Assembly: GCA_009779295.1 (NCBI GenBank)
Contig: WREN01000001.1
Location: 1 to 50,662 of the forward strand
Source of the DNA: Oscillospiraceae bacterium
GTDB lineage: Bacteria > Bacillota > Clostridia > Oscillospirales > CAG-272
Reading direction: 5' to 3'
DNA: 50,662 nucleotides
Shown: positions 5,385 to 46,191 of the stretch, piece after piece
Position numbering within the stretch: the first letter of the stretch is position 1
Layout: the number at the start of each line of letters is the position of its first letter
Notes under the pieces: model-generated
Databases searched by the model: none
The model's input: the letters and a program-made list of their open reading frames with translations, nothing else
What the model was told of the DNA's origin: nothing
Position numbers and translations under genes: made by a program

Positions 5385-7195
5385 ACACGGACAAGATAAA
5401 GAAGTTTGTACTCCCCAACCTGCCCTATGTGATGTTGTTCTGGTTTTTCGGCAAGATGGGCGAATCCTACCGCCTGACGCCGGGCAGCGACGTACTAAAA
5501 AAGATGATGGGCAGCCTTACCGGGCTAAATATCGCTATGGCAAAACCGTTGCCGTCGTTTGACCCGTTCGATATTCTTGTAGGGCTGGCAGGTACGGCAA
5601 TAGTATTTCTCTTTGTATGGTACAAGAAGAAAAACGCAAAAAAATGGCGTAAAGATATAGAGTACGGTTCTGCTCGTTTTGGCAACAAAAAAGACATCGA
5701 ACCTTTTGTTGATCCAAAGCCTGGCAACAACATCATCCTGACCGCAACGGAGAGCCTTACGCTCAACGGCAGGCCGAAAAACCCGAAATTTGCGCGCAAT
5801 AAAAACGTGCTCATCGTGGGTGGTTCCGGTTCAGGCAAGACCCGCTTTTGGCTCAAACCCAATCTCATGCAGCTTCACAGCTCGTATTGTGTTACCGATC
5901 CGAAGGGAAGCATCCTCGTCGAGTGCGGTAAACTGTTACAGGACAACCAGTACGAAATAAAAGTGCTGAATACGATTGATTTTACCAAATCAATGAGATA
6001 TAATCCGTTCGCGTATATCCGTTCGGAAAAAGACATCCTCAAACTCGTGACGGCGCTCATCCAAAACACGAAGGGCGAAGGAAAAGCCGGAGAAGATTTC
6101 TGGGTGAAGGCCGAGACCCTGCTCTACTGCGCCCTAATCGGGTATATCTATTTTGAAACGGGCGAAGAGGAACAAAACATGAACTCACTCGTGGAAATGA
6201 TAAACGCGATGGAAGTGCGCGAAGAAGATGAAATGTACAAAAACGCGGTGGATTATCTGTTTGATGAACTGGCGGCGAAAAGCCCTCAGCACTTCGCCGT
6301 AAGGCAATATGAAAAATATAAGCTGGCGGCGGGCAAAACCGCGAAATCGATCCTAATTTCATGCGGAGCGAGGCTCGCGGTGTTTGATATAAAAGAAGTA
6401 CGCGACCTGATGGCATACGATGAAATGGAACTCGACACCATCGGCGACCGCAAAACCGCTCTGTTCATCATCATAAGCGATACCGACGATACATTCTCGT
6501 TCATCGCCGCCTTGATGTACAGCCAGTTATTTAATTTACTCTGCGATAAGGCGGACAACGAATACGGCGGACGGCTGCCAGTCCACACACGTTTCCTGCT
6601 GGACGAGTTTGCAAATATCGGCAAAATTCCGCGTTTCGAGAAACTGATAGCCACCATCCGAAGCCGCGAGATTTCAGCCTGCGTCATCTTGCAGGCGCAA
6701 TCTCAGCTTAAAAGCATTTATAAGGACGACGCCGAAACGATCATAGGCAATATGGATACGGTGCTATTCCTCGGCGGCAAGGAAAAAACTACTTTGAAAG
6801 ACCTGAGTGAGAGCCTCGGAAAGGAAACCGTATATATGCTGAACAACAGCGTCAGCAAGGGTAATTCCCCGTCGTACAGTCAGAACACGCAGAAGCTCGG
6901 CAAAGAACTCATGTCCATCGACGAAATCGCCGTGATGGACGGGGCAAAGTGTATCTTGCAAGTGCGGGGCGTCAGACCGTTCCTTTCGGATAAATTCGAT
7001 ATAACTAAGCACAAGAATTACTGTTATCTTTCCGATTCAGACCCGAAAAACGCTTTTGATATAGGCAAATACGTACTGCGGAAGTTGAAAATAAAACCGG
7101 ATGAGTGGTACGAATACTTCGAGTACGAGCCAACGGAGGAAGGACTGCCGGACGAAGCGTTTGACGATTTCCCGGTAGACCTCGAACCAATTTAG
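5381..7195 (+). CDS. type IV secretion coupling protein (VirD4/TraG family)
   Basis: N-terminal TM segments, Walker A VGGSGSGKT, Walker B-like LLDEFANIG, 604 aa. Confidence 0.9.
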   Translation: MNTDKIKKFVLPNLPYVMLFWFFGKMGESYRLTPGSDVLKKMMGSLTGLNIAMAKPLPSFDPFDILVGLAGTAIVFLFVWYKKKNAKKWRKDIEYGSARFGNKKDIEPFVDPKPGNNIILTATESLTLNGRPKNPKFARNKNVLIVGGSGSGKTRFWLKPNLMQLHSSYCVTDPKGSILVECGKLLQDNQYEIKVLNTIDFTKSMRYNPFAYIRSEKDILKLVTALIQNTKGEGKAGEDFWVKAETLLYCALIGYIYFETGEEEQNMNSLVEMINAMEVREEDEMYKNAVDYLFDELAAKSPQHFAVRQYEKYKLAAGKTAKSILISCGARLAVFDIKEVRDLMAYDEMELDTIGDRKTALFIIISDTDDTFSFIAALMYSQLFNLLCDKADNEYGGRLPVHTRFLLDEFANIGKIPRFEKLIATIRSREISACVILQAQSQLKSIYKDDAETIIGNMDTVLFLGGKEKTTLKDLSESLGKETVYMLNNSVSKGNSPSYSQNTQKLGKELMSIDEIAVMDGAKCILQVRGVRPFLSDKFDITKHKNYCYLSDSDPKNAFDIGKYVLRKLKIKPDEWYEYFEYEPTEEGLPDEAFDDFPVDLEPI

Positions 7196-8343: not shown

Positions 8344-8559
8344 ATGGAATTTTTCAACTCTGCGGTAGACGTACTGCAAACACTGGTCATCGCGCTCGGC
8401 GCGGGTCTCGGAATCTGGGGTGTCATCAATCTACTGGAAGGATATGGCAATGATAACCCCGGCGCGAAATCACAGGGGATGAAACAGCTAATGAGCGGCG
8501 GAGGCGTCGCGCTCATCGGCTTAGTCCTCGTACCGTTGCTTAGCGGTCTTTTCGGCTAA
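8344..8559 (+). CDS. Maff2-family small membrane protein
   Basis: MEFFNSAVDVLQTLVIALGAGLGIWGVINLLEGYGNDNPGAKSQGMKQLMSGGG is a near-canonical Maff2 sequence. ATG 8344 lies in frame within the track ORF 8284..8559. Confidence 0.85.
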   Translation: MEFFNSAVDVLQTLVIALGAGLGIWGVINLLEGYGNDNPGAKSQGMKQLMSGGGVALIGLVLVPLLSGLFG

Positions 8560-9422
8560 TGGCCGGGCTGCTCGATTCGATTGCCGACTGGTTCAGGGGG
8601 CTGTTGATCGACGGCATTACAGGCAATTTTATCGGTATGTTCAACGATATGAACGCGCGTGTCGGTGATATTGCTTCGCAGGTAGGGCAGACGCCCGCGG
8701 GCTGGAACGCGGGCATATTTGCCCTTATTCGCACCCTGTCCGAAACGGTGGTCATACCCATAGCGGGTATGATACTGACTTTCGTGCTGTGTTATGAGTT
8801 GATACACCTCATCATCGAGAAGAACAACATGCACGATTTTGACACTTTTAACTTATTCAAGTGGATATTCAAGACATTCTGTGCGGTATTTATACTGACG
8901 CACACCTTTGACATAGTGATGTTCATATTCGCCCTCGCGCAGAACGCGGTGAACAACAGCGCGGGAATAATCGCCGGCAGCCTTGATATGAACCTCGCCA
9001 TGACAGACCTCGCCGACCAACTGGCGGCGATGGGAACAGGCGAGCTAATCGGGCTGTTCTTTGAGTCGGCGATATTAAGTATCGTAATGAACGCAATCTC
9101 TATTTGTGTATTCCTTATCATATACGGAAGGATGCTGGAAATATACCTGACCATATCGGTCGCACCCATACCGCTGTCAACGATGGCAAACCGCGAATGG
9201 GGCGGTATCGGCACAGGCTACCTGAAATCGCTGTTCGCATTGGCGTTTCAGGGATTTTTGATCATGGTATGCGTTGCCATCTACGCCGTACTCCTGCAAG
9301 GTATAACGGCAGCAGGCAGCGTCCACGCGGCGATATGGGGCTGTATGGGTTATACGGTACTGCTCTGCTTCATTTTGTTCAAAACGGGCAGCATGGCGCG
9401 GTCGATATTCGGCGGACATTAA
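8559..9422 (+). CDS. VirB6/TrbL-like polytopic T4SS membrane protein
   Basis: 287 aa with about 6 hydrophobic segments. Position and N-terminus are typical of the CD1112-type family. Confidence 0.8.
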   Translation: MAGLLDSIADWFRGLLIDGITGNFIGMFNDMNARVGDIASQVGQTPAGWNAGIFALIRTLSETVVIPIAGMILTFVLCYELIHLIIEKNNMHDFDTFNLFKWIFKTFCAVFILTHTFDIVMFIFALAQNAVNNSAGIIAGSLDMNLAMTDLADQLAAMGTGELIGLFFESAILSIVMNAISICVFLIIYGRMLEIYLTISVAPIPLSTMANREWGGIGTGYLKSLFALAFQGFLIMVCVAIYAVLLQGITAAGSVHAAIWGCMGYTVLLCFILFKTGSMARSIFGGH

Positions 9423-14074: not shown

Positions 14075-16964
14075 GTGCAGCGACACGTTGTCGCACAAAC
14101 TTCAATCGGGCAAGTGCCTGAAAGGAGGTAAAAACGACGGGGAAAACAGAGTTTTCCCTAACTGATACTTCGAGAGGTGGAATGATGGGGTAACGCCCTG
14201 AAACGCCTCCCCTGAGACTGCGATGGAAGAAACGGATTGCAATATCCGGGACTGACACAGCTCGCCGAAGTCGGCTGAATACACTCGCTATACTTGCCAG
14301 TGGCAACACAGCGGTATGGCAAAAACGAGCCAGAGATGGCCGTGAGTGACAGGCCGGGGGTCTACAAAAATACCTATGGTCAGAATGTCTTAACCGACCG
14401 ACAAAAACCGCGAAAGTACGAGTCTAAATAATGTACGCGTAGAAAATGCGCTTGTCCCGTCAGGGAAGCCGGTGTGGGGGAGTAAAATTGTTCTTTATGA
14501 AACTCCATACAACGTTACAGGCGTTGTCAAGCCGGCAGGCTTAAAGCGGAGGCCTAAGGGTATATATGCACAGATAGAAGTATCGGAACGTGGAAAGTCC
14601 GGGGCGTGGAGCGATTGCACGCTATGAAGCGTTGAGAGGGAAAACCGTGTCGTCGGAAACGAAGGTGCGGTATAACTTCTCTTAATCCCGGAGGAAGGCG
14701 CAGCCGTGGTACCGTTTTCGGTTAGCGATAATCGAAATTAGAAGCCGTGAAAAAAGTAAGCGGTGGAGGGACGGGCTGTAGTCGGTTGCAAGAATACAAA
14801 CAATTACAGTTGCACGTTAGGATTCGAGTACGACCAAAAGGTCAATTTACTCGCGAGAGGAGTTGATGCCTATGGCTATACGGAACCAACGGCAAACAAA
14901 GCAAGAAAAACCCAAAGCTAAAAAAGTGGATGTTCTACGACGCGCAGAATATTATGACATGCAAGAAACTTTTGACAGACTTTATGCGGACAGTATGGAA
15001 GGGAAACCTTTCACACAGTTGATGGATTTGATACTTGACCGGGAAAATATCCTGCTCGCTTACCGTAATATCAAAAGAAACAGCGGAAGCGTCACCCCCG
15101 GCACGGACAACCTGAACATAGAGGACTTGGCAAAAGTTACCTCAGACCACATGGTCGAAAAAGTCAAGAACATCCTACGGAACTATCGACCCCGCCCGGT
15201 TCGGAGAAAAGAAATCCCGAAGGAAGGAAACCCGGAAAAGACCCGACCTTTGGGAATCCCCTGCATGTGGGACAGACTGATACAACAATGCGTCCTGCAA
15301 GTATTAGACCCCATTTGTGAAGCGAAATTCAGTGATAACAGTTATGGCTTCCGCCCTAACCGAAGTTGCGAACACGCAATAGCGCAATCGTACAGGCTCA
15401 TACAGCAATCGGGTTTGCGCTTCGTTGTCGAAGTTGATATACAAGGATTTTTCGACAATGTTAATCACTCAAAACTAATAAAACAGATGTGGGCTATGGG
15501 GATTCAGGATAAAACATTGATATACATTATTCGCCAAATGCTAACGGCTCCTATCTTCATGCCGGATGGAAGCATGGTAACGCCGGACAAAGGAACCCCG
15601 CAAGGTGGTTTATGTTCACCGTTACTTGCGAACATCGTACTGAACGAATTGGACAGATGGGTAGAAAGCCAGTGGCAGGAAAACCCTGTTGTATACAATC
15701 ACTCCACGCATAAAAACGCTAACGGCTCCCTCATCAAAAGTCACGGCTATGCCGCTATGCGAAAAACAGGGCTTAAAGAGATGTATATCGTCAGATACGC
15801 AGATGATTTTCGGATTTTCTGCCGTACCAGAAGCGACGCCGTTAAAACTATGGTCGCCGTAACAAAATGGCAGAAAGAACGGTTAAGGCTTCAGGTATCG
15901 CCGGAGAAAACGAGGGTTGTCAACCTGAAAAGACAATACTCCGAGTTTCTGGGCTTCAAAATCAAGGTGCGAGAAAAAGAACGCAAACAGGTGGTAAAAT
16001 CGCATATTTGTGATAAAGCCGCCAAGAAAATCGCACAAAAATCGGTCGAAGCAATCAAAGAGGTTGTCAGGCCAACGGGCAAGACGACAGAATATGACGC
16101 TATCCGAAAATACAATTCGATGGTCATAGGATGGCACAATTACTATCAGATTGCGACGAACGTAAGCCTTGATTTTGATAAAATCAATTTTCGGATTCAA
16201 AGAGTTTGGAAAAACCGCCTCAAAGAACGGCTGAAAAAGCTGGGCAACAACGTCAATGGAAAAAGCGAAGTGGTTAAGCGATATGGAGAATCGGCGCAGT
16301 TGCGTTTTGTATCGGGACAGCCGGTCGCTCCGCTTGCCTACATCAAGACCAAAACCCCCATACACAAAAAGCGTACAGTAAACAAGTATACCCCAGAGGG
16401 CAGAAACGAAATCCATGACAATCTCGGCATAAATACAGGATTGATGTTGGCGCTAATGCGACAGCAATCATTCGGAAGAAGCGCCGAATACATGGACAAC
16501 CGAATATCCCTCTTTTGCGCTCAGTATGGGAAATGCGCGGTCACAGGAAGCGTACTCAGCAATGTAGACGAGGTTCACTGTCATCATTTGCTACCCCGCG
16601 AAATGGGAGGCAAGGATAATTACAGTAACCTTATGATTGTTCGGGAAGATGTACACATCCTCATCCACGTAAAGAAACAAGAAACCATTGACAAATATCT
16701 CGCATTATTGAGGCTTGACCCCAAGCAACTATCCAAACTGAATAAAATCCGGGAGAAGGCTGGTAAAAATCCCATACCCTAATAATTACCAGTCACAAAG
16801 CTAAGGGTTAATCACGCTTAATAACCATTTAATTCCGAAATAGCAAACTGTAATAATTGAAGTATTCATACAATCGATGGCGGGCCGGATGAGCTGAAAA
16901 GTTCATGTCCGGCCCAGACCGGGGGAAAATCCCGAGATAATATCAGAGGATTACCTATCGGAAC
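14075..16964 (+). mobile_element. group II intron (boundaries +/-4 nt) inserted in virB4
   Basis: The 5' end is GTGCA and the 3' end is AC. A domain V-like 34-nt hairpin GGGCCGGATGAGC-TGAAAA-GTTCATGTCCGGCCC lies at 16882-16915. It contains an internal RT/maturase ORF. Joining 14074 to 16965 restores ...DIKE-L-GKGLKKIAMLVLQDQVW in frame. Confidence 0.8.
14866..16782 (+). CDS. group II intron reverse transcriptase/maturase with C-terminal HNH endonuclease
   Basis: RT motif IVRYADDFRIF, RPLGIP, and a maturase X region. The HNH domain is CHHLLPREMGGKDNYSNLMIVREDVHILIH. Confidence 0.92.
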   Translation: MPMAIRNQRQTKQEKPKAKKVDVLRRAEYYDMQETFDRLYADSMEGKPFTQLMDLILDRENILLAYRNIKRNSGSVTPGTDNLNIEDLAKVTSDHMVEKVKNILRNYRPRPVRRKEIPKEGNPEKTRPLGIPCMWDRLIQQCVLQVLDPICEAKFSDNSYGFRPNRSCEHAIAQSYRLIQQSGLRFVVEVDIQGFFDNVNHSKLIKQMWAMGIQDKTLIYIIRQMLTAPIFMPDGSMVTPDKGTPQGGLCSPLLANIVLNELDRWVESQWQENPVVYNHSTHKNANGSLIKSHGYAAMRKTGLKEMYIVRYADDFRIFCRTRSDAVKTMVAVTKWQKERLRLQVSPEKTRVVNLKRQYSEFLGFKIKVREKERKQVVKSHICDKAAKKIAQKSVEAIKEVVRPTGKTTEYDAIRKYNSMVIGWHNYYQIATNVSLDFDKINFRIQRVWKNRLKERLKKLGNNVNGKSEVVKRYGESAQLRFVSGQPVAPLAYIKTKTPIHKKRTVNKYTPEGRNEIHDNLGINTGLMLALMRQQSFGRSAEYMDNRISLFCAQYGKCAVTGSVLSNVDEVHCHHLLPREMGGKDNYSNLMIVREDVHILIHVKKQETIDKYLALLRLDPKQLSKLNKIREKAGKNPIP

Positions 16965-17580: not shown

Positions 17581-18428
17581 ATGATAATAATACAAGCGCC
17601 GGCGGAATGGGAGTGGCTTCCGTCCCGCTCGCTGAGAACGCGCACGTCAAAGAACTGCTCGGTATACTCAGCGGCAACGGCAAAGACACCTCCGGGCTTA
17701 ACGCTCTCATAAGCCATGTTAGCGACATGGAAAATTTCGTCAAGATGGCGGAATCCAAAATTTCGGATATGAAATCGCAGCTTGACGCGATGAAGGAAGT
17801 GCAGAACCATCCGATAAAAACGGCGCTTCAAAATACGATAAAAGTTCTTGAAGCGAAAGTCGCGGAAATCAAGATACAGCTTTCGGAATTGAAGCACAAT
17901 ATCGTCGAGGGCTGTAAAAACGCCGTGTTAGCGTTTAAGGAAACAGGCGCGTCTGTACTCGACAAACTGGCGTCGTTTTTTCACATCAAAGATAACTTGC
18001 AGTCAATGAGCAAAGAAATTAACGCGGGCGTCAGGCAGTGCGATAAAGCCGTAGCCAAGATAGAAACCTTCTCAAAAGAATATCATAAAACCGGGCGGAA
18101 TCTCAAAAATATGGGGCGCATATTGATAGGCAAAGAGCCCATAAACGCGGTAAAAGAATTCGGTAAGCTGGCGAAAGTTTTCAGCGCGCCGTATAAGGCG
18201 CATAAAGTAATTCTGGTGAAAATAAAGAAGTCATTGAACAAGATGGCCGCCAAATTGGAAACCTTTGAACAGACAACGGCGGTGAAACGCGAGGAACGGG
18301 CAACGGCGAAAGCGGAAAAAAAACCGTCGCTTGCGGAGAAACTCAAGGCCAATAAGGAGTTGATCAAGCAGAAAGACCTTGAAACGCCGAAGTCGGAACG
18401 TGTTAAAACGCCGGGGATCGAGGTATGA
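17577..18428 (+). CDS. conserved ICE coiled-coil protein of unknown function
   Basis: 283 aa, heptad-rich, with a C-terminal KPSLAEKL tail. Confidence 0.65.
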   Translation: MNDNNTSAGGMGVASVPLAENAHVKELLGILSGNGKDTSGLNALISHVSDMENFVKMAESKISDMKSQLDAMKEVQNHPIKTALQNTIKVLEAKVAEIKIQLSELKHNIVEGCKNAVLAFKETGASVLDKLASFFHIKDNLQSMSKEINAGVRQCDKAVAKIETFSKEYHKTGRNLKNMGRILIGKEPINAVKEFGKLAKVFSAPYKAHKVILVKIKKSLNKMAAKLETFEQTTAVKREERATAKAEKKPSLAEKLKANKELIKQKDLETPKSERVKTPGIEV

Positions 18429-21268
18429 ACCGGAACCGAAAAAAATATACGGCGCGCGGAAGGGTAACGCAGCAAATGACGCGGGATGGGCTCGTTCAGC
18501 GTAACGAAGCCACGGGCGAAAAAACCAAACTCAGTAAACGGGAAGCGGAATTTGATATACACGGTAACCCGCCGGAGTTTGCTATACTCTTAAAATCTGT
18601 AAACAAGCAAAAAAGTAAAATTGATAAACGGAAAATATATAAACAAACGTACCGGCAGTATCAAGAACGACGGGAAGCGAAAGAACCGGCAATTCAACAT
18701 GAACCGCCCAAGCCTGATATGCCGGCTACACAAACAAATGAAACGGCGGGTGGCAAATCATTGGTAAAATCCACGCAACCCGCCGTTTCTCCCGTGCCGG
18801 AGATACGGCAACTGGAGCTGCCTGAAATACCGATGAACTCTCAAAATGACAAAAATAAATTCAAGGTACGGAAAACCACGTCTTACCGCCATAGCAAAAC
18901 TTCTGTTTTACAGGAAAAACCCGTAGTTCTACAGCACGAAACAGAGTCAGAACCAACGTTCAAACATGAACCCGGCGAACCGGTAACGGAACTTCCGGTT
19001 TCAACGAAAACGGCGGACAAACCGCGCATAAAAAAGAAAACACGTAAAAAAAGAGTATATCGGCATAAAAAACTCGGTACATTACATCGTGAAGCGCCGA
19101 CAGCGGAACCCCCGTCCAACGAAATTAAATCATTGCCTGCCGCCTTTATTGTCCCGCCGGAAATACGGAAACAACAACCGGAAACACCTGAAATGTCGCT
19201 GAACCCTCAAAATTATCAGGGACACCCAATAACTGAAGCGGAAACGGAACGCGTATCAAGTACGCAAAACGCAAATAAAAAAAGCGTAAACCGTCATAAT
19301 GAACCGGACAAGTTAAAGCAACGTAATCCTTCAACCACAGAAGACGTTGGTTCAAAACCTGTTGAAACCGTTATTTCGTCAGCACCCGAACGATCCGTGA
19401 AAGCCGATACATCGAAAAAATCAAACGAAAAAGTAAAAACAGACAAACCGCAAACCGATCCGAAAGCCGATGATGCCGAAGAAATCACGAAACCGGAACC
19501 AAACGGCGACGAAACAGAAGTTCCGGCAGAAACAAAACCGCCGCCTGATGAAACCAAACCAATGGCCGGAACCGATATGCCGGAATCCGCGCCGGGCAGC
19601 AAAAAGAACGATAAACTGCGGTTTACCGAAGACGAAACCGCGCCGGAAAATCCTACAAACCGCAAACTCGCCAAAGCCGAAAAGAAATACAAGCGGACAA
19701 ACGGCAAACTGGAAAAGGCGCGGGGCAAACTGCCAGCCAAACGCAAGCTGCGTTCACAGCGCGTCTTTAACGAAGAAACCGGAAAAGCAAAAAATAAGCT
19801 GTACTTTGAAAGAGAAGTCAAAACGCAAAAAGAACATCTTCAAGGCGCGCTGCCGCTCCGCCCCGTCAAAGCCGGAGCAAACGCATTGATTATCCACGGA
19901 CACCGCAAATTGTATGAAGTAGAAAATGAAAACGTCGGTGTCAAAGCAGGACACAGGGGCGAAATGATCGCCGAAAGTGGGCTACGCAAGGCTTACCGTC
20001 TGCACAAGACTGCGCCGTACCGCAAGGTTGCGAAACTGGAGCACAAAACGATGAAGAAGCGGATCAACCTGACGTATCAGCAAACGCTCTATAAAAATCC
20101 CCAATTGAAAAGCAATATGTTTTCGCGTATGCGGCAGAAACATAAAATCAAGAAAGATTACGCGAAAAAAACGCGTGAGGCGCAAAAAGCGGCGAAAAAC
20201 ATAAAAAAAGCAGCCGAAAAAACGGGTAAAGCGGCGGCGGCAGTAGGTAAGTTTGTCGTCAGGCACCCGGTTATTTCAATAATCCTGCTCCTTTTCAACC
20301 TGCTCATACTCGTAATGCTGTCTATGTGCGGTACCATCGGCGGACTCGCCGGGGGCGGGTTAGGCGGCATACTCAACGCTGTATACCTCGCTGATGACGC
20401 GGATATTGAAATTGCCGGGCTTGCTTATTCCGAATGGGAAACGGATTTAAGGCTCGAAATTGTAAACACCGAGGTAAACCGTCCCGGATACGACGAATAC
20501 CGCTACACTATCGGAAATATTGGGCACGATCCCCTCGCTCTGATGGCATATCTTACAGCCGTGTATCAGGATTTCAATTATGACGATATAGAGCCCGTAT
20601 TGTGGGATTTATTCGGCGAACAATACGAACTGGAATTTACAGAGAGCGTTGAACTCCGGCACAGAACGGAAATCCGTTGGGACTACTATATAGACGATGA
20701 CGGTGAAGAAGTATGGTATAGTTACGAAATTGACGTGCTTTACGATTGGTATATCCTCACGGTAACGCTCACATCGCGCCCGTTCGCAAACGTCATATTG
20801 CCGTTGATGGACGATGGGCAGCTACAGCATTACAGCGTCCTCATGGAAACACGCGGCGGCAGGCAATACGCAGGTAATCCGTTTGAGTTTGACATAATGC
20901 CATACATATCAAGTTATTACGGCTACCGCATACACCCTATCACCGGCGCGAAAGACCTGCATAGAGGTATAGACATAGCTGTTCCGGCAGGCACGGAGAT
21001 ACGCTCGGCACAGGACGGACAGGTCACGTTCGCGGAGTATCTCAGCAGTTACGGCAACGTAGTAGTAATAGAGGACGAAACCGGGCTTGTGACGAAATAC
21101 GCCCATTGCGATACCCTGCTTGTCAGCGCCGGACAGACAGTGAATATGGGCGAATTCATAGCCACGGTAGGCAGCACCGGCGATTCAACGGGGCCGCACC
21201 TTCATTTTGAAGTGCTGAAAGACGGGCAATACCTCGACCCGCTCCTATTCGCCTATACCGGCGGATAA
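18425..21268 (+). CDS. membrane-anchored M23-family peptidoglycan hydrolase (T4SS cell-wall hydrolase)
   Basis: The C-terminal HRGIDIAVPAGTEI...YAHCD...GSTGDSTGPHLHFEV matches the M23 HxxxD/HxH motifs. There is a TM segment ISIILLLFNLLILVMLSMCG and a long basic low-complexity N-terminus. Confidence 0.85.
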   Translation: MNRNRKKYTARGRVTQQMTRDGLVQRNEATGEKTKLSKREAEFDIHGNPPEFAILLKSVNKQKSKIDKRKIYKQTYRQYQERREAKEPAIQHEPPKPDMPATQTNETAGGKSLVKSTQPAVSPVPEIRQLELPEIPMNSQNDKNKFKVRKTTSYRHSKTSVLQEKPVVLQHETESEPTFKHEPGEPVTELPVSTKTADKPRIKKKTRKKRVYRHKKLGTLHREAPTAEPPSNEIKSLPAAFIVPPEIRKQQPETPEMSLNPQNYQGHPITEAETERVSSTQNANKKSVNRHNEPDKLKQRNPSTTEDVGSKPVETVISSAPERSVKADTSKKSNEKVKTDKPQTDPKADDAEEITKPEPNGDETEVPAETKPPPDETKPMAGTDMPESAPGSKKNDKLRFTEDETAPENPTNRKLAKAEKKYKRTNGKLEKARGKLPAKRKLRSQRVFNEETGKAKNKLYFEREVKTQKEHLQGALPLRPVKAGANALIIHGHRKLYEVENENVGVKAGHRGEMIAESGLRKAYRLHKTAPYRKVAKLEHKTMKKRINLTYQQTLYKNPQLKSNMFSRMRQKHKIKKDYAKKTREAQKAAKNIKKAAEKTGKAAAAVGKFVVRHPVISIILLLFNLLILVMLSMCGTIGGLAGGGLGGILNAVYLADDADIEIAGLAYSEWETDLRLEIVNTEVNRPGYDEYRYTIGNIGHDPLALMAYLTAVYQDFNYDDIEPVLWDLFGEQYELEFTESVELRHRTEIRWDYYIDDDGEEVWYSYEIDVLYDWYILTVTLTSRPFANVILPLMDDGQLQHYSVLMETRGGRQYAGNPFEFDIMPYISSYYGYRIHPITGAKDLHRGIDIAVPAGTEIRSAQDGQVTFAEYLSSYGNVVVIEDETGLVTKYAHCDTLLVSAGQTVNMGEFIATVGSTGDSTGPHLHFEVLKDGQYLDPLLFAYTGG

Positions 21269-24852: not shown

Positions 24853-27800
24853 ATGGCAACAAAACTGCAATTCTACTCTGTCGTAGCGGAACGCGCGGCA
24901 AAAGAAGTCATAGCCGGAAGTGAAAACTGGCAGAGTTTCCTTACCGTTGCCGCGCGTCTGTATAAATACCCGTTTCCAGATCAGCTATTGATCTACGCGC
25001 AGCGTCCAGACGCCATCGCCTGCGCTCCTATAGAAACATGGAACGAAAGCTTCAATAGGTGGGTGCGGCGAGGCTCGAAAGGCATCGCGCTCATCGACGA
25101 CAGCGGCGACCGCCCGCATCTCAGATACGTTTTTGACGTTTCCGATACCGAGCCGTCACAGTACCGTTCACGCCCCGTGCAATTGTGGGAAATGCGGCAG
25201 GAACACAGGGAGCCGGTACTGGAATACCTGTCCGGCATTTATGACGATTTGGGCGACACACTCGCGGATTCGTTCCGCAGCATTGCCAGGCAGCTTGCCC
25301 GCGAGTATTATATAGATAACGCAAGCGAAATACGCTACCGCGCGGAGGACAGCTTCCTTGAAGATTTCGATGATTTCAACTTCGGAGTCGCTTTTGAGGG
25401 AGCGCTGACCAACAGCGTCGCGTATACCCTTATGTCACGCTGCGGGTTTGATACTTCCGACTATTTCGATGACGACGATTTCCGGTATATTTATGAATTT
25501 AACACCCCTGACATGGTATACGCGCTCGGAACGGCGGCAGGCGAACTCTCGCAGCAAGTCTTGCGCGATATAGAACTCGTAATAAAAAAATATGAGCGGC
25601 AGCAAGCCGCCGAAAGGAGTGTAACAAATGAACGAACCCAAGATGAACGACAATCGCCTGACATACTCCCTGAACGGGGATTATCTTCTTCCCGACCTGA
25701 TACTGGACGAACCGCCGGAATTGGCGGAACCGTTAGGCAGGTACGCGAGGATACGCAAAGCGTATCTGAAGGAAAACCGGACGATGACCTACAATACGAT
25801 GCTGCTGAAGGAAACGTTGTTTCCGCATCTGCGGGAAACGGAGGAACTGGCGACCGCGAGGTTGAAACAGGTAATGAAGATATTGATGTCACGGGACAGC
25901 CTGCCCGACAAAGCGGACGATCCGATGGGCTGGACGGCGGCGATGAACGCCCTGAAGGCACAGGCGGAGGAACTGGTACTGAACGAATTGGTCTACGCTT
26001 AGAAAACCAAACCTATTCCCAAGTTGGGAATAGCGCCATATCAGAAACGTTATCAACCTCGTCCGTTACATTGGACGAGGTTGATTCCATTCTGCGGGAC
26101 GGGGGCAACGAAAAGAACAGTGTACTGCGTATCGCGGCGTATTTCGCAAAGGATATGGCACAGGTGGAAAACGCCGATTTTTTGCGCCGTGAGTATTTAT
26201 TGGGACAATGGGGCCGTAATTTTGAATCCGGCGGTAAGGGCTATCAATTCGGTTCGCGGCAGACCTCCGTATGGTTCAACGAGGACGGCATACGGATAGG
26301 GCGCGGCAAATCAGCGAAACTCGCGACGGATTACGCGCTCATCACATGGGAACAGACCGCCGAGCGCGTCAAGCAGCTATACGACGCGGGTATGTACGTT
26401 TCCCATGATGTTCTCGACGAAGCCCTGTACAACGAAAGTATGGAACGCGCGGATGACGTCAAGGAAATATACAGTAATATTTCGCGCGGACTTAACGACA
26501 TTCAATATGAGTTGAAAAAAGCCATGACCAAAGAGCAACAGGAAACGGTCAAAGACGATTGGAAAATCCGCCGTTACCTGATCCGCGGCCTGACAGAACT
26601 CGGCAATACGGCGGAAAAAGCGTTATTCGGCGAAGCAAAAGTGTCAACTGACGAAATTATGCGGTTATACAACGAAACGTTCCGGTTATCGGAGGAAATA
26701 CCGCAGGAATGGGAGTTCGGCGGCAGCCATACGGAAACAGTAGAAATAATTGCTGAACTGCTGCGCGACAAGGGGACAATTAGCGGAAATGAAATCAGGC
26801 AGGGTATCGGATACAACGAATTGAGCGAATACAATATAATACTGACCCGGCTGCGTGAGGATCTTTCCGCATTTGAAGCCGAGCCTGACGCACCCATACA
26901 TTTTTATCGGAATCCACACCGCGTGTTGAGTGATCTCGAAAAAGCCGGATTACCTGTTTATGGTTTTCCCGCCGCGGAATATACGCCGACGGGCTATACA
27001 CGGTTCATAACCGACGACGAAGTTGACCGGTATCTTACCGGCGGCAGTCACTACAACGAAAGCAAACTACGCATACTGTCGAATTTCCTCCACGACCATA
27101 CGCCCAAAGAACAGCAGGATTTTTTGAAAAACGAATACGGGCACGGAGGCGGCTCATGGGTAGACGGCGGTTGGTACGGAGCGGATCCGGGCAAAGGCAT
27201 AACGCTCAAACGTTCCGGCTGCGATGACGTCAACCTGAACTGGAACCAGGCGGCGCGCAGGATAGAAAACCTTATACGCGGCGGGCGGTATATCTCACGC
27301 GATGAACTTGGCCGTATATTCAATTATGAGCGTCTGATGCTCGCGCGGAGTATAAATAACTTCTATTACAATATGCCCGACGAATATCAGCGCCCGTTCG
27401 CAAAAGAATTAGACTTTTACAATCCAAAAGAGGACGAATGGGCGGCGCTCAACGGGCTGCTATATGATCCGGAAAAGATCGACGCCCTGCTCGGCGAAAT
27501 GCGGCGCATCTATGATAACACGCCGGAAGAGGACAGGTATTACGAAAACCGAAAAACAGGCTATGAACGGCTAACGGCGTTCCGCGACGGGCGGTACACG
27601 CTCTTTCCCGGACTTGAAACCCTGCCAGACCCCGATGCAACCGCAACGCGCCCGCAAACGCAAATACCGTTCGCGCCGTTTGTTCCGCCATCGGCAGTAC
27701 AGAACGAACAACTCACGTTTTTCGATTTTGAACAGCCGCCATTACTGACAAGCGTAGAGGAACAGCAGGCTATATTAGAAAAAGCGGCGGAAACATCAGC

Positions 27801-35546: not shown

Positions 35547-36998
35547 ATGGCGACGACATGGATAAAACCGCTTCATATCGGAAGCAAACGCGCGCGCTCC
35601 ACGGTTGTTTCCGACATTATCGGGTATATAAAGAACCCGCAGAAAACTGACGGCGGCAGTTTGATTGCCGCCTACGGTTGTGACAGCCGTTCGGCAGACG
35701 ATGAGTTTATGCTCGCCAAACGGGAATATGAGGACATTACGGGGCGAAGTCAAGGCAGGCGCGATGTTCTCGCCTATCACATCAGGCAGAGCTTCAAACC
35801 GGGCGAGGTTGACGCGGAAACCGCGAATAAGATCGGGTATGAATTAACGATGTCATTTACCAAGGGCAATCATGCTTTTGTCGTGGCTACCCACATAGAC
35901 AAGGCGCACATCCATAACCACATCATATTTAATTCGACCGCCTTGTCCTGCGAACGGAAATTCAACAATTTCTACAGGTCGGACAAAACGGTGCGCCGTA
36001 TCAGCGATTTGCTCTGCATAGAGAATGGGCTGTCAATCATAGAAAACCCACAACCGTCCAAAGGCAGGAATTACGCTAAACATATCGGCAGGCCAGCGAC
36101 ATGGCAGGAGAAGCTGTGCCGTCAAATTGACGGGTTGCTGCCCTCTTGTGCTGCGTTCGATGACTTCATTGCGGCGATGAAATCGGCGGGCTATACCGTC
36201 AACGAAAAACGCAAGCACATCACGTTCCTCGCCCCCGGTCAGATTAAGCCTACGCGCCTTGATACGCTGGGCGGTGAGTATACCGAAGCGGCGATAAGGG
36301 AACGGCTCGGCATGACGAGAACCATCGCGGCTTCCGGCGCGGGCGGGGGTCTTGATACGGGAATTCACGCCCGTTATACGGACGAACCGACACGGGTAAG
36401 CCTGCTCATAGACATACAGGCGAAGATACAGGAGGGTAATGGTGCCGGGTACGAACGATGGGCGCGCATATTCAACCTGAAGGAATCGGCCCGCACCCTG
36501 CTGTTTCTGAAAGAGAACGGCATAGACAGCTACGACGACCTCGTACAAAAAACCGCCGCCGCTTCCGCTGATTTCGATGAGCGTATGACGAAGATCAAGT
36601 CTGCTGAAAAACGTATGGCTGAGATTACCGAGCTTCAAAAACACATCGGCGCTTACGGCAAGACCCGCGAGGTATACGCGAAATACAAGGCGTCAGGGTG
36701 GAATTCCGATTTTTATGAGGAACACCGGACAGACATTACCCTGCACAACGCGGCTAAAAAACATTTCGACGACTTAAAAATTAAGAAGCTGCCTACTATC
36801 GCGTCGCTCAAACAGGAATACGCGGTTCATGCCGCTGAAAAGAAAAGTCTGTATCACGGCTACCACGAAGCGAAGGACACTATGCGCCAGCTTCTTGTGG
36901 CGAAAGGCAACGCTTCGCGCATACTCGGCATTGCCAACGATGCGCGGGAGCGCGACGATATGCGCGGACGCGCCCGGAGCATTGCGCCGGACAGATAG
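35547..36998 (+). CDS. relaxase/mobilization nuclease (MobA/VirD2 superfamily)
   Basis: Histidine triad HIDKAHIHNHIIFNS, an N-terminal region with candidate catalytic Tyr, 483 aa, directly downstream of mobC. Confidence 0.9.
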   Translation: MATTWIKPLHIGSKRARSTVVSDIIGYIKNPQKTDGGSLIAAYGCDSRSADDEFMLAKREYEDITGRSQGRRDVLAYHIRQSFKPGEVDAETANKIGYELTMSFTKGNHAFVVATHIDKAHIHNHIIFNSTALSCERKFNNFYRSDKTVRRISDLLCIENGLSIIENPQPSKGRNYAKHIGRPATWQEKLCRQIDGLLPSCAAFDDFIAAMKSAGYTVNEKRKHITFLAPGQIKPTRLDTLGGEYTEAAIRERLGMTRTIAASGAGGGLDTGIHARYTDEPTRVSLLIDIQAKIQEGNGAGYERWARIFNLKESARTLLFLKENGIDSYDDLVQKTAAASADFDERMTKIKSAEKRMAEITELQKHIGAYGKTREVYAKYKASGWNSDFYEEHRTDITLHNAAKKHFDDLKIKKLPTIASLKQEYAVHAAEKKSLYHGYHEAKDTMRQLLVAKGNASRILGIANDARERDDMRGRARSIAPDR

Positions 36999-40406: not shown

Positions 40407-40422
40407 TTTGGGAGAAATGAAA

Positions 40423-43400
40423 ATGAAAAAAAGGATATTACATAAAATAATAACTTTTACTCTTGCGTTCGTGATGATTGCTGGGTTTACTCCAGCATTA
40501 CCAGTACATGCAGCAACTTCTCTTTGGGTAGGTAATGGAGGCTTACCATCTGGTTCAATTGTAGAAGAAGGAATATCTTTTTGGTGGGGTTTGGATATTA
40601 TAAGAGATGATTATGGTAGCATACCGAACCTTGATATAAAGGTTGATGTCATTAATGGCAAATTACCAACTGGCATATACCACGACAGGAATGGCGTATT
40701 TGTAGGTACTCCTGTAGAACCAGGTACATTTACTTTTTCTCTCAGAGTAACTCAAATAAGCACTGGGTTTACGGGTACACTTCTTAACCATACAATCATA
40801 GTCGTACCCCATCGTCCTCTCATTCCAACTGCGGCAATAACCATTGTCGAACCAATAACAGGCAATGCGCCAAATGTATCAGCTAACGGAACCGGTTTAT
40901 TTACTGTTGGCACAGTATCATGGACTCCGAATCATAACCCGTTCCGTGCAGGAACATCTTATACGGCACAAGTTACGTTGACAGCTAACGGAGGTTATAA
41001 GTTTTCAAACTCAACAAATGCTACGATAAATGGGCAAATTGCAAGAAACGTATCATTGGGAGGTCTACTGGGTAACGGAGAAATAACGATATCATATACG
41101 TTCCCTTCCACCCCCCCTATATCCATTGGTGAACAGCAAGGCAGGTTATTCCCCGGTATTCCCGGAACTGTTGTTTTCCCTATAAATGGTATACCAGACG
41201 GCAGTTACAATGATGTAACGGTTAACAATCTTCCGCCCGGCGTAACAGTTGAAAGACCAATTGTTATTTCGAATAACACTGGTATTTTGAAATTAACAGG
41301 AAGCACGGCTACAATCACTGGAATAACTTCAAACTTGAGGTTAACAATTAACGGAAACATTTCAGAGCCGTTCATTTTATATGTGACTGATATTAACGAA
41401 CCAATAGAAATATTTACGGCTGAAGAATTCAACACTGTTGTTCGAGATTACGGTCGCTATCCGTATAGTCATTTCAAAATCATGAATGATATTGACCTCT
41501 CTGAAATTAACAACGGTATTTGGGAACCGATTGGTACGACATCTCAACCATTCAGAGGCACAATTGAAGGTCGTTTTAATATGATTTCGGGCGTTAATGT
41601 TGCGCCGGGTAGTTCCGCTTACGGTCTATTTGGGTATAGCGAAGGAATTATTAAAGATTTAGGAGTGGAATACACATCTCGTTTTGGCGGAGTTGCCGGA
41701 AATAACAGCGGAAGTATTGTAAACAGTATTACCAAATTTGAACTCAGAAACCCAACATCATGGACAGGCAACAACCGAATTGCAGACAAGGTCGTGCTTA
41801 TAGACCTTTCAAGCCCAAATCAATCTAAACTGATCAACAGAACCCTCACAATAGCTGATACTGTTGAAACCGTTGTATTCAGAGGACGAGATACAATATA
41901 TGAAGGGCTTAGTATTGTTATTGAAGGCAATACCACTGTGGTTTTAGATGATTTTAGATTTCAAGCTCGCCCCGGCGAACATGCGATTAATTTTATCGGA
42001 GGCGTTGGCTCTAATCCTGCTATTATTTCGACAGGAAGCCGAAACAACAATTTAATACAAGGCTGGCACACGCATAATGCGGTGCAGAGTAACGGCAATT
42101 TATTTATTGGCGGCAACGCAAACTTAACCGTCGATTATAAAGAACCGAGCGCAGATATTCAAAGGAATGGGCTCGATGCGATTCATTTGAATGGAAATTT
42201 AACCGTTGCATTAGACGCTGCCTTGAAAGCGCAGGGTGGCAATGGCGGCGATGGTGGAACGGTACAAAAAGCCGGATCAGCAGGTGATAACGGTGTTAAA
42301 GGTGGTGACGGCGGCGCAGGGATTCACTCTTTTGGCTTGAATATTCTTAATTATTCAGAAGTAATTGTTATAGGAGGCAACGGCGGAAATGGAGGTCATG
42401 GTGGCAATGGCAGTCATGGTACAAATGGCAATAAAGGGTTAGATGCGATAGATTTTAATCGTGATATAATTCCCACTTTGCTTGGTTCACCTGAAAACGA
42501 CGGAGAGGATGGAGGTACCGGAAATCAAGGTGGTAACGGCGGTGATGGGGGCGACGGCGGAAAAGGCGGAGACGCCATACAACTTAGTACGAATCTTTAT
42601 TATTATTCACAACAAAGCTGTATTCGTATGATTGCTGGTCAAGGTGGAAACGGCGGTCGAGGCGGAAGTGGCGGCAACGGCGGCAACGGTGGCAACGGTG
42701 GCAATGGTGCTAATGCTGGATTGCTCGGTGGTAGGGGTGGCAATGCCGGAAATGGTGGTCGAGGTGGTAACGGAGGAAAAAACGGTGATGGAGGTTGGAA
42801 CGGGTCTTTATTATATGTTAATGGGCAAACTATTTATGGCGAATCACAAAAATATGGCGGAGGAGCTTATACGGACAGAACCTCTTTCGGTTCAGGTGGC
42901 AACCCTGGTTTCCCAGGTAGAGGTGCAGATGCAATGCTTCGTTGGTTTCCTGTTATTTCCGCAGGTATAGACGGAAGTGACGGAAACCAAGGTAATCCGG
43001 GGGTTTCTGGTTCATTGGGTGGCGAAGGTATACCGCGGCCAATGAACGAGGAGGAAATGACCGGCTTTCTTGGGAATCTTATACCATCTGATTTTTGGAA
43101 CACAATGCGTGTTGAATTCCAGCGGCGGCGTGTTGGTGCGGACAGGCTTATTATAGCAAGGATGCCATCAAGAACAACTTTCATTGCTGGTGAGATTTTT
43201 CGTCCTATAAGTAACTGGACTGATATAGAAATTGGACGCATGATAAACGGAGAATATGAACAGATATATAATCTTGGACAAGTGAACTTTTCACTTAATA
43301 ATTCTCCGTTAAACGTTTTTGACCGAGAAATTATAATAACGTCAGGTGCGTTTACTGCAAGAGTTCCGATAACAGTTAATCCTGTTTCTACAACGGAACT

Positions 43401-46191
43401 TATCCCTATTTTGCCGCCTGACCGTGGTCTTGTTTTTGAAGAAGGTAATCAGCTTGTGCCAACGCTACAACCTACTCCAGAATTGCGAACGTTGCATGGC
43501 TTAAGCTTAAGACGTATATTAATTAACGGTAATGAAAATATAATTGAAGGCGAAGATATTTTCTTAGGAATGCCAACGCCCAGACAAGATTATCTTTTTA
43601 GCACACGGGCGCGCATTGTTGATAAGCGTGAAAATGCCATAGATTACTTAAGAAATGCTGGCGGAAGACCACTTGACGAAGAAGATAAAGAAATAATAAT
43701 TGAAGATGGATACTGGTTTAATAATGATTTTATCGTTACCGCCAGTGTTTCAATTCCAATTGTTGTAAAACCAAGACCGGCAGCTGCTGCACCTATTGCG
43801 AGTGTTGATTCTGGCGCAGTTGCTATTGGTACGGAAATAATACTTACAAGCGATATGCCGAATATTGGATTATCAAACGGAAGCCGAAGCGTATTTATTC
43901 GATATACCACAAATGGCTCTGAACCAACGCGAATATTAAGCAGTACAGTATTTGATGGGTCGCAGCCTATTAATATTAACGGTAATACGAACATAAAAGC
44001 GAAAGTTTTTTATACCGAAGAAATTGAAGTCTGCGCAGAAAGAAATTGGGTTGAATATAGAACAACAGAGAGTGGTACAGTCACGTTTAGTTATACGTTA
44101 TTAGATCGTATAGAAATTGAGCATCCAAACGATATATTGGTGCAGGGGTTAGATTTTGGTACGCACCCACAAAATGTTATTATTAACCCGGATACAATTA
44201 CAATAAAAAACACAGGGGGTACACCGACTGGAAATATAAATATAGAGGTATATAACTTAGAGGGTTTACCTCATGAAAACTTTAAACTTTTAAACGAATC
44301 CATTACTGGAATACCGGTCGGAGGATTTGCTACATTCGAAATACAGCCCGGAACTTCAGCTGGATTGTCGGCAGGGCAACACGTTGCAATTGTTGTTTTG
44401 AGCGGAATTAATATGGAACCGATAATGATAGCAACATGGGTTGATATTTTAACGGAAAGCGATAACGCACAGATACCAAACATAATTAACCATCCACAAA
44501 ACGCAACTGTTACGGTCAATGCGGCGTATAATCTGATCGTTTCGGCAAATGTCACGGACGGTGGTAGTTTAAGTTATCAATGGTACAGCAATACAATTGC
44601 GTCCAATACGGGTGGCACGATTATACAGGGAGCGACGAACGAAACATTTACCGTGCCTACAGGTATAGCAGGAACATATTATTATTACGTCGTAGTAACA
44701 AACACAAACAACGATGTAGGCGGAATAAAAACAGCGACAGTGACGAGCGACTTCGCTATAATAACGATTCTTAATATACTTGACCCTTACGAACCACAAA
44801 TCAACATTACAAACGCAACAGGACGGGCAGGCGAAGAGATAACGCTGACAGTTACGATGGAAAACATACCGCAAATTGCGGGATATGGCATTTCGATGAC
44901 TTATGACCCTAATGTGTTTACATACATCTCAGCAGCGCCCGGCGATATTCTGCCGGAGAGATTCATCGATCAAATAAGGCCAAATAATCGGATGTTTTTC
45001 AGTTCGTATGACGACGACGGCAATTTTGAAACAGGTACAACATTATTTACGGTAACTCTTAAAATAGACGACAATATAGGAGAAGGCGTTATCGAGCCCG
45101 CTGCACTATATTTCTCATATTTTAATACAGTGATTGAGGGCTTCGATACTGGCGATACGATATACCCTGAGATAAATCAGCCAGTTATCACGGTCATCAA
45201 CGTTTTCTACGGCGATGTGAACGGCGACGGCAGGCTGAACATTTCCGACAGGACAAGGATGAACCAATTCTTCTCGGACAATCTACCAGAAGGTGCAGTA
45301 TTTATAGAGGCAAACGCAGACGTAAACGGCGACGGACGATTGAACATATCAGACAGAACCGTGATGAACCAGTTTTTCGCGGGTACGAGAGATTATCTCG
45401 GGCCGCAGATAACCCCAGCGTTTTTCAGTTTCATTTTACCCACACTTATACCAGTAAATGAGCCGGAGATACTTGTATCTAACGTTTCCGGTAAGGTCGG
45501 CGATACAGTTAGCTTAACCGTATCGATAAAAGATAATCCAGGACTATCAGGTTACGGCATATCGATGCGTTACGATGAGAACTTGTTAACCTTCATATCA
45601 GCGTCGGCGGAAGATATACTGTATGATAATTTCGTCGTTATTGAGAAGCCAGACGGACGAATCCACTTCAACTCGTATAACGATGACGGCGAGTTCGAAA
45701 CCATTGAAGAGCCGGAAGACGAAGAGGAATTTGTAGATGAAACAATATTATTCACGGTGACGTTCAGAATCAACGAGACAGTTTCTGGAGGCGTTAACTC
45801 TATAGGAGTAGTAGAGTTCTATTACGATAATTTCGTTATCGAAGGATTCGCGATATGCGAGGCCGATGGAATCACGCCGAAAACGATATATCCGGAGATA
45901 CCGTTAGGATTTGTTACAGTAGAGGTTGGTAATGCGGTTACGATTGTGAACGCGGTTGCGCAGTACATCAGCATAGCAGAGACATCGAAAAATTCCGGAG
46001 TATGGGCGTTGACGTTTAGAGTAACGGAAACGTGGTCGAACGGTGAGACGAAAGTAGTGCCGTACACGATCAACATCAAAGCTAACAACGCGAATGTAGA
46101 TGGCAGATACAACCTCGGAGCGTATATTTTAATTTACGATATCAAAGGTAACGGCTCTAACATCAGAGAGTTTAGGGTTATACTGAAGTAA
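40423..46191 (+). CDS. giant secreted surface protein: Ig-like domains, GLUG-type module, Gly-rich GGNGG repeat region, cohesin - dockerin - cohesin, conserved C-terminal module
   Basis: Signal peptide [29 protein letters not shown]. Dockerin [22 protein letters not shown]...[21 protein letters not shown] (45205-45390). Two cohesin-like modules (~44.81-45.20 kb and ~45.47-45.93 kb). ATG 40423 follows GGGAG by 8 nt; the track start is TTG 40408. Confidence 0.85.
42230..42810 (+). repeat. coding low-complexity region of (GGNGG/GGDGG)n tracts alternating with short hydrophobic strands
   Basis: The translation reads GGNGGDGG..., [43 protein letters not shown] and [28 protein letters not shown]... 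Confidence 0.85.

Follow-up and report, generated by a model that had tools for sequence, protein, structure and literature searches.

To our knowledge, long same-strand coding overlaps in which one gene lies fully inside another are very rare in bacteria, and most of the proposed cases are based on weak evidence. In phage lambda, Rz1 is wholly embedded in the +1 frame of Rz; both genes are short and their products form one complex. The comS gene of Bacillus subtilis, which has 46 codons and a narrow taxonomic distribution, overlies an enzymatic domain of srfAB and is expressed from the srfAB mRNA. In viral overprinting, the nested gene is usually the novel one. Here we describe a nested gene in a 50,662-nucleotide stretch of contig WREN01000001.1 (assembly GCA_009779295.1) from an Oscillospiraceae bacterium, hereafter called the window. 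A complete tnpV gene lies out of frame within a giant gene for a polyvalent protein (Table 1), and the shared segment very probably represents true dual coding, with tnpV initiated internally and the giant protein read one base off as a disordered tether.

The arrangement resembles Rz/Rz1 in that a complete small gene with its own start sits inside a larger one, in the +1 frame of the same strand, with both genes conserved in mobile-element relatives. It differs in that the host gene encodes a multidomain protein of 2000-3400 aa, that the overlap is confined to an unconstrained and apparently disordered linker, that the nested tnpV appears to be the older gene and that no interaction between the products is known here. 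With comS and srfAB it shares a small out-of-frame gene with its own translation start inside a giant multidomain Firmicute gene, whereas tnpV, at about 120 codons, is a member of a Pfam family that also includes stand-alone genes, occurs in both Clostridia and Bacilli and overlies a linker. As for gene B in A and gene E in D of phiX174, there is long same-strand dual coding with asymmetric constraint and one putatively disordered product. However, the overlap lies in a 10-kb gene on a conjugative element rather than in a size-limited capsid genome, and, unlike in viral overprinting, it is the enclosing frame that, by codon usage, seems to be newer and disordered.

Relatives of both genes have been described separately. 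The TnpV proteins of Tn4451 and Tn4453 belong to the same family (PF14198), are similar in length and are likewise found on Firmicute mobile elements. Genes of the Tn4451 type are free-standing beside the serine recombinase gene tnpX, as is the copy on a Campylobacter coli plasmid, which has at least 4 stops in the frame that is open here; the nested tnpV has no adjacent recombinase and does not lie in a Tn4451-type context. The host gene resembles those for the polyvalent proteins described by Iyer et al. 2017 (PMC5512222), with ArdC-like, MutS-I, methylase and SNF2 helicase domains in one polypeptide, and it sits in a conjugation module beside an ArdcN-YodL protein; it differs from the described concept in that a second gene is hidden in the linker. 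The terms TnpV, 'overlapping' and 'frameshift' are absent from the main text of that paper, and our literature searches returned no account of a nested tnpV, although their coverage was incomplete and novelty is not proven.

An earlier note on this DNA, made from the sequence alone, had described the giant open reading frame (ORF) as open across tnpV and a second ORF as starting from ATG 25628, one base off the host frame. Re-examination of coordinates and sequence bore out both statements, and the translation of the second ORF equals the string given then. The overlapped stretch corresponds to host residues 259-384. The nested product matches the Pfam family TnpV (PF14198) with an E-value of 5.8e-29 and 100.8 bits (gathering score 27), the match spanning profile positions 1-111 of 111 and product residues 12-122. 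This strong full-length match, from a profile search that had been named as a test, identifies the product as TnpV. With 124 aa, a Shine-Dalgarno (SD) sequence of its own, ATG and TAG, on an element with type IV secretion system (T4SS) and relaxase genes, it has the features of a small mobile-element protein. An AlphaFold2 (AF2) model based on a 41-sequence alignment reached a predicted local distance difference test score (pLDDT) of 84 and consists of a beta-hairpin followed by four helices. A Foldseek search of this model against the PDB yielded no significant neighbour (best E 1.8), so the suggestion once made that TnpV is "lambda Xis-like" (quoted in PMC3158075) gets no support.

To survey relatives, we used the first 516 host residues in a protein search, which returned 1622 proteins, many of them alignable across the linker with no large gaps. 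When one genome per GTDB species was scanned, at least 600 stretches matched, of which at least 593 were confirmed as loci with the N-terminal module of the host protein (N-module), and the best 80 of these were kept, including loci from Geosporobacter, Roseburia, Hungatella, Enterocloster, Pseudoflavonifractor, Oscillibacter, Agathobaculum and Flavonifractor. In 80/80 genome loci a frame-0 N-module is accompanied by a TnpV homologue in frame +1 (40-55% identical, E 1e-21 to 1e-39), and the downstream domain, detected by tblastn in 66 of the 80, is in frame 0 wherever present. The tnpV genes of the relatives encode 114-129 aa, with ATG and stop kept in the same phase. Their outer ORFs are 2100-3400 aa long where complete, a few being cut short further downstream and one being broken at its 5' end (L049).

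Shortened giant ORFs of about 515-1835 aa were also observed (L015, L016, L027, L043, L050, L074, L075, P0026, P0038, P0071 and P0086). All of them, down to the shortest (P0026 and L074), end well after the overlap, and the C-terminal tails of P0026, P0038, P0071 and P0086 look frameshifted. These early-ending ORFs are decayed or split versions in which the N-module, the tnpV overlap and the first downstream domain are still intact.

The same arrangement was found on plasmids. In Clostridium perfringens, Clostridium botulinum and Virgibacillus, a TnpV-like match lies in the +1 frame under a coding sequence annotated as "helicase-related" or "SNF2-related protein". Each of these three tnpV genes comes with an SD-like sequence, a start and a stop of its own, and the outer frame is free of stops at GC contents of 23-33%, with 16-22 stops in the third frame (21-22 at 23-25% GC); the C. 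perfringens plasmid is the case at 23% GC. On a fourth plasmid, from Cohnella, the outer frame is open for 2086 codons. The outer proteins of the plasmids are 22-38% identical to that of the window in the N-module and 43-60% in the methylase-helicase part. Two NCBI contigs from metagenome-assembled genomes (MAGs), reached via their TnpV proteins, both have the long ORF intact.

Genes for TnpV that stand alone provide the comparison. Among 33 tnpV loci in IMG/VR, 12 had no stops in the other frame; the N-module lies upstream in 10 of these, which are all those with the flank present, and in the remaining two tnpV begins no more than 50 nt from the end of the locus. There were 1-10 stops in each of the 21 other loci, none of which had an N-module. 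Seven further stand-alone genes (a Campylobacter tnpX-tnpV pair, a Pusillibacter plasmid, a Salmonella IncHI2 plasmid and second tnpV paralogues in four loci) had 4-14 stops. Taken together, host-frame stops over tnpV numbered 0 in 99/99 nested relatives and in the window, covering Clostridia and Bacilli as well as integrative and conjugative elements and plasmids, and 1-14 in the equivalent frame of 28/28 stand-alone genes. Nested relatives included some with as little as 22-27% N-module identity and spanned GC contents of 23% to 57%. As to second copies, a stand-alone tnpV downstream of the giant gene was observed in L035 (17856-18230, beginning before the giant gene's stop codon), L052 (20189-20566), L074 (15947-16324), L078 (18685-19194) and L111 (6001-6342). 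These paralogues are 28-35% identical in the four genome loci and 41% in L111, and they show TnpV tied to these polyvalent genes in two different ways.

The earlier note had offered, next to dual coding, the explanation that the giant ORF is in fact made up of three genes lacking the stops between them. If so, the genes would have been fused only in this sequence, by sequencing or assembly error or by recent mutation. Public annotation does sometimes split the region, as in the two MAG contigs with an annotated TnpV, in one of which the downstream gene starts inside tnpV and both of which carry spurious antisense genes over the N-module, and PGAP, the NCBI annotation pipeline, annotated only TnpV on the Cohnella plasmid. 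Yet the long ORF is intact in the mis-annotated MAG contigs themselves, the order N-module, stop, tnpV, stop, downstream gene was not found in the genome, plasmid or IMG/VR samples, and every relative with an N-module, at all the identities and GC contents just given, has the host frame unbroken across tnpV. Neither an SD sequence nor a start was seen for the downstream part, and third-position bases that would make stops are missing from tnpV, as described below. We therefore give the fusion of three genes in this sequence alone next to no chance of being correct. The other explanation, a linker written over tnpV, is the one that the profile match, the conserved TnpV frame with its start signals and the unbroken host frame favour.

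To estimate how often the host frame would be open by chance, we kept the amino acids of TnpV fixed and drew its synonymous codons anew according to their frequencies in the remainder of the host ORF. For the window, the frame was open in 0/300 resamplings, with 7.1 stops expected; over 81 loci, a mean of 5.7 stops was expected and the mean probability of an open frame was 0.004. A rough figure of 0.25% put forward earlier was of the right order (resampling mean 0.4%). The third sense frame over tnpV contains 7-19 stops in the genome loci and 7-22 when all nested relatives are included. Chance openness of the host frame is excluded. The codons of tnpV show how the stops are avoided: T was found at 0/1404 third positions where the next codon starts with AA, AG or GA and a host-frame stop would result, compared with 12% in other tnpV contexts and 20% in the same contexts of the N-module. 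Overall, the third positions of tnpV have 8% T and 51% G, versus 21% and 28% in the N-module. The opposite strand is also open across the overlap, with a 156-codon ORF at 25491-25961 (-), which probably just follows from the skewed base composition at tnpV third positions.

Composition has a bearing on another explanation, namely that tnpV and both flanks are translated separately, the host frame being open because of composition or RNA structure and the downstream 3000 residues being made by reinitiation. In its favour, the host frame is without amino-acid constraint, and G-rich third positions alone cut the number of stops, such that tnpV's own codons, when permuted between synonymous sites, leave the frame open in a mean of 9% of trials. 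Composition of this kind does not account for the all-or-none split between 0 stops in 99 nested genes and at least one in each of 28 stand-alone genes, nor for a T that is missing just where a stop would form. The frame is moreover open at 23-25% GC despite 21-22 stops in the third frame, the downstream domain is always in the phase of the N-module, and no conserved start or SD sequence follows tnpV. Separate translation seems to us quite improbable.

The start signals of tnpV were examined in the 81 loci and in a sample of 39 representatives with <90% nucleotide identity in tnpV (38 when the N-module was needed, L049 being left out). The sequence AAAGGAG had been reported ahead of the ATG at a spacing of 8 nt; the spacing and the site are real, but the full conserved SD is GAAAGGAG, starting from 25612. 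It is present in 71/81 loci, and the 8-nt gap to the ATG in 77/81. The homologues thus retain SD, spacing, ATG and stop and hold the TnpV frame open. In the host frame the SD reads Glu-Arg-Ser, which accounts for the invariance of E254 and R255 in the host protein alignment. The arginine at this site is encoded by AGG in 36/38 representatives scored, although AGG makes up 6.6% of the arginine codons elsewhere in these ORFs. This preference for a rare codon indicates selection at the nucleotide level, as expected of a ribosome-binding site. A second ATG occurs in tnpV at 25643, and entry P0121 of the protein collection is the 119-aa product begun there; the orthologous start is ATG 25628, located 8 nt past the SD, and not 25643.

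Internal SD-like sequences stimulate frameshifting in prfB and dnaX. With these precedents, TnpV might be joined to the N-module through programmed +1 frameshifting, promoted by the SD-like sequence, instead of being initiated internally, and the tnpV frame is indeed open for 40-195 nt upstream of the ATG in many relatives. The fixed 8-nt distance between GGAG and ATG in 77/81 loci is the geometry of initiation, however, and the preceding stop lies anywhere between 3 and 414 nt away. The tnpV frame of the window has a TAA at 25622-25624, two codons ahead of the ATG, so that a shift site could not fit in after the SD, and no conserved slippery motif was seen. We regard frameshifting as extremely unlikely.

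In a search for an internal promoter, consensus matches were no commoner than in shuffled sequences. A perfect 9-bp inverted repeat, CTATTCCCAAGTTGGGAATAG, lies at 26013-26033, 11 nt past the tnpV stop, where the host frame reads YSQVGNS, and a near-identical palindrome occupies the same site in L081. In the set of 39 representatives this palindrome is conserved neither as an RNA nor as a DNA hairpin, and several members of the set form other strong hairpins after tnpV (L001 and L002 at -35 to -37 kcal/mol).

To quantify selection in the two frames, we calculated p-distances by codon position for the representatives. The values for positions 1, 2 and 3 were.295,.230 and.442 in the tnpV frame and.324,.252 and.571 in the N-module, so that the periodicity in the overlap follows the tnpV frame. 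Amino-acid identity was 61.5% for TnpV and 41% for the linker read in the host frame, against 42% for the unused third frame taken as a control. An OLGenie-type site count on 706 pairs with 80-99.5% identity, with bootstrap confidence intervals (CI), gave a dNN/dSN of 0.27 (CI 0.19-0.36) for tnpV, which indicates purifying selection. For the host frame, dNN/dNS was 1.9 (CI 1.2-3.0) and dSN/dSS 0.56 (0.33-1.2), indicating no detectable purifying selection on outer-frame residues. Synonymous variation, which the earlier note had singled out for analysis, is reduced in the overlap: four-fold sites have a p-distance of 0.449 in tnpV compared with 0.592 in the adjacent N-module, in line with the third-position values. 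As far as these alignments show, both frames have been maintained under asymmetric constraint, with SD, ATG and stop conserved.

These values also speak to the possibility that only the host frame is translated and that the TnpV-like ORF is a functionless fossil of a captured gene. PGAP annotates the host gene alone in three plasmids, and both products are predicted from sequence comparison. A fossil would be expected to decay; instead, ATG, stop and a length of 114-129 aa are retained in all relatives, the ratio of 0.27 and the third-position periodicity are those of a gene under selection in the tnpV frame, and the SD is conserved at the nucleotide level through a rare arginine codon. The confident AF2 model and the full-length Pfam match at 100 bits point the same way. 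A fossil is in our view very improbable.

The relative age of the frames was assessed from codon usage. Compared with the rest of the giant ORF, the tnpV frame has a correlation of r 0.68 (r 0.73 for relative synonymous codon usage, RSCU), and the host frame inside the overlap one of r 0.24 (RSCU -0.24). Agreement with the codon usage of the surroundings is the usual criterion for the ancestral frame, and by it tnpV is ancestral, since its usage, unlike that of the linker frame, resembles the usage in the remainder of the gene. The reverse polarity would be that tnpV was born de novo in a pre-existing linker and later escaped as the stand-alone tnpV of the Tn4451 type. This would agree with a neighbour-joining (NJ) tree of TnpV in which stand-alone and nested clades are interleaved, and with our finding no three-gene ancestor. 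The tree, with 115 columns and no support values, cannot decide the polarity, and a folded, constrained TnpV facing a disordered, unconstrained linker is what would be expected if the linker frame were the newer one. An origin of tnpV within the linker is therefore unlikely.

The host protein consists of the ArdC-like N-module, the linker, repeated uncharacterised domains, MutS domain I, an N6-type methyltransferase and an SNF2 helicase. Searches of Pfam and NCBIfam with the host product identified MutS_I, a weak methyltransferase match, SNF2 and Helicase_C, and the C-terminal 1650 aa are 43-60% identical to plasmid-borne 'SNF2-related protein' genes. With several unrelated effector domains in one polypeptide of a conjugative element, the product qualifies as a polyvalent protein. 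In an AF2 model of the first 516 host residues, residues 1-265 have a pLDDT of ~90. The top Foldseek matches of the N-module in the PDB were three chains of ArdC from R388 (6i89 and 6sna, probability 0.98-1.0), although the matches are weak, with E-values of 0.008-0.03 and a target-normalised TM score of 0.39-0.42. A BLAST search with the N-module gave a likewise weak match, of 29% identity over 58 aa, to the N-terminus of an ArdcN protein. In Pfam, host residues 1-255 matched no family at E up to 1, the ArdcN profile PF08401 included, neither the N-module nor the domain after the linker was assigned to a family by NCBIfam or Pfam, and a search of PDB sequences with the N-terminal profile gave a chance match only. 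The earlier designation "ArdC-N-like" thus receives weak support from the structural and BLAST comparisons and none from Pfam. The N-module is a distant paralogue of the adjoining ArdcN domain, and this ArdcN paralogue has no nested tnpV.

For the linker, AF2 residues 267-393 have a pLDDT of <50 and no secondary structure, a range that coincides with the overlap at 259-384, and the segment is predicted to be disordered. It is composed of 15% G, 11% E, 11% D, 10% A, 9% R, 9% P and 8% S, and in the window it includes TAGIGGTVR and SDGLDGGDERPEGTGGGTGTER. Position 3 of a tnpV codon is position 1 of the outer codon, so that G at this position yields Gly, Glu, Asp and Ala in the linker. The initial proposal that the host stretch is an out-of-frame read of a real gene, serving as a linker, agrees with both the missing amino-acid constraint and the low pLDDT. 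No start codon or SD sequence of its own was found for the folded domain that follows. This domain (26041-26400, the LDEVDSILRDGGN... module) recurs ~330 residues downstream (26998-27294) with 32% identity, and also in many relatives.

A mechanism that would account for these observations is the following. The older, independently folding small gene tnpV would be translated from its own strong internal SD on the mRNA of the giant gene. Ribosomes begun at 24853 would read the same 375 nt one base earlier, giving a flexible tether of ~125 residues that joins the ArdC-like N-module to the remainder of the polyvalent methylase-helicase protein. Selection would hold the amino-acid sequence of TnpV, and the host frame would only be kept stop-free and hydrophilic, both properties being supplied by the synonymous codons of tnpV, in which T is avoided and G favoured at third positions. 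As to the origin, an N-module gene and a downstream gene may have been fused by read-through of a pre-existing tnpV, a history suggested by the codon usage and by one product being ordered and the other disordered. Such a fusion might have been tolerated, and then locked in, because a disordered linker accepts almost any sequence, and nesting might ensure that TnpV is expressed and inherited together with the polyvalent protein. In these terms, it is plausible that the locus arose historically from three genes by fusion.

Several points weigh against dual coding as outlined here. The host frame is without purifying selection at the amino-acid level, and the claim that it is coding rests on stop avoidance, on composition and on the missing separate start for the downstream 3000 residues. 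Translation of both frames, and hence the existence of both products, is something that we infer from conservation. The 80 genome loci were ranked with a linker-containing query, which biases the set to open host frames; three TnpV-centred samples were taken for this reason, and these unbiased samples are smaller, with 18 nested and 28 stand-alone genes. The unsupported NJ tree interleaves the clades and does not fix the direction or number of nesting and escape events. Finally, TnpV has no PDB fold match from which a functional reason for the nesting might be drawn. A more far-reaching reading, in which TnpV is an obligate partner of the polyvalent protein, nesting is an adaptive hard-wiring and the embedded form is ancestral to the tnpV of Tn4451-type elements, we consider rather doubtful. 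The roles that could be imagined for such a partner, for example as an assembly or export chaperone or as a regulator in the recipient cell, are equally tentative.

The coordinates of these features and of the surrounding genes are given in Table 1. The window carries a conjugative element, and the gene order ArdcN-YodL, TTRAP and N-module/tnpV gene is repeated in L081. The reverse transcriptase ORF is probably a group II intron. In the segment 38000-50662, the GC content drops from ~50% to 34-44%, save for 48% at 42001-43000, and cohesin/dockerin genes are located in this low-GC part (40408-46191 and 46355-48937); the segment probably contains the edge of the conjugative element followed by host or other cargo DNA.

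Table 1. Features of the giant gene, the nested tnpV and the surrounding element in the window, with antisense gene calls in related loci.
Feature	Coordinates	Strand	Remarks
Host gene, polyvalent protein, 3410 aa	24853..35085	+	one open frame; codon starts ≡ 1 mod 3
N-module, host aa 1-258, folded, ArdC-like, long helix at end	24853..25627	+	AF2, Foldseek
Internal SD GAAAGGAG for tnpV, 8 nt ahead of ATG	25612..25619	+	sequence and conservation
tnpV, 124 aa and TAG, wholly nested, +1 frame relative to host	25628..26002	+	codon starts ≡ 2 mod 3
Linker, predicted disordered, host aa 267-393, -1 frame of tnpV, extending a few codons beyond tnpV	25651..26031	+	AF2
Next folded host domain (LDEVDSILRDGGN... 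module), back in host frame	26035..26400	+	AF2 residues 395-516 confident
T4SS coupling protein	5381-7195		part of conjugative element
VirB6-like protein	8559-9422		
Reverse transcriptase ORF, RVT_1, E 2e-39	14863-16782		in the middle of the conjugation module
M23 peptidase	18425-21268		
ArdcN-DUF6908-YodL polyvalent protein, 811 aa	22177-24612		matches ArdcN
TTRAP protein, 76 aa	24616-24846		
Relaxase	35547-36998		
Antisense genes over N-module	L081 9235-9837; L082 9226-9558, 9712-9849; L088 5367-5930	-	

The public records of these loci reflect the difficulty of annotating them. Records that annotate TnpV have 'hypothetical proteins' without Pfam hits on the opposite strand in place of the N-module, and these antisense genes are probably artefacts of gene callers refusing same-strand nesting. 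The records of three plasmids (L083-L085) list only the giant gene, without TnpV. Gene finders forbid same-strand nested overlaps of this kind, and because of this the TnpV and giant-gene families are systematically mis-annotated.

The nested tnpV would rank among the better-supported examples of true bacterial dual coding, with deep comparative support across hundreds of species-level genomes of Clostridia and Bacilli and with the stand-alone tnpV genes as a built-in natural control. What seems new is a deeply conserved bacterial nested gene whose enclosing frame appears to be the newer, disordered one. The route to the overlap would be opposite to that of classical overprinting: an existing small gene would have been engulfed when its neighbours fused, the new frame providing a disordered linker whose only requirement is freedom from stops. 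These data tie TnpV, which has been an orphan family since Tn4451, to anti-restriction polyvalent proteins and give a concrete place to look for its function. Should TnpV turn out to be an obligate partner of these proteins, this would provide a function for a 30-year-old orphan family and reveal a hidden part of conjugative anti-defence systems.

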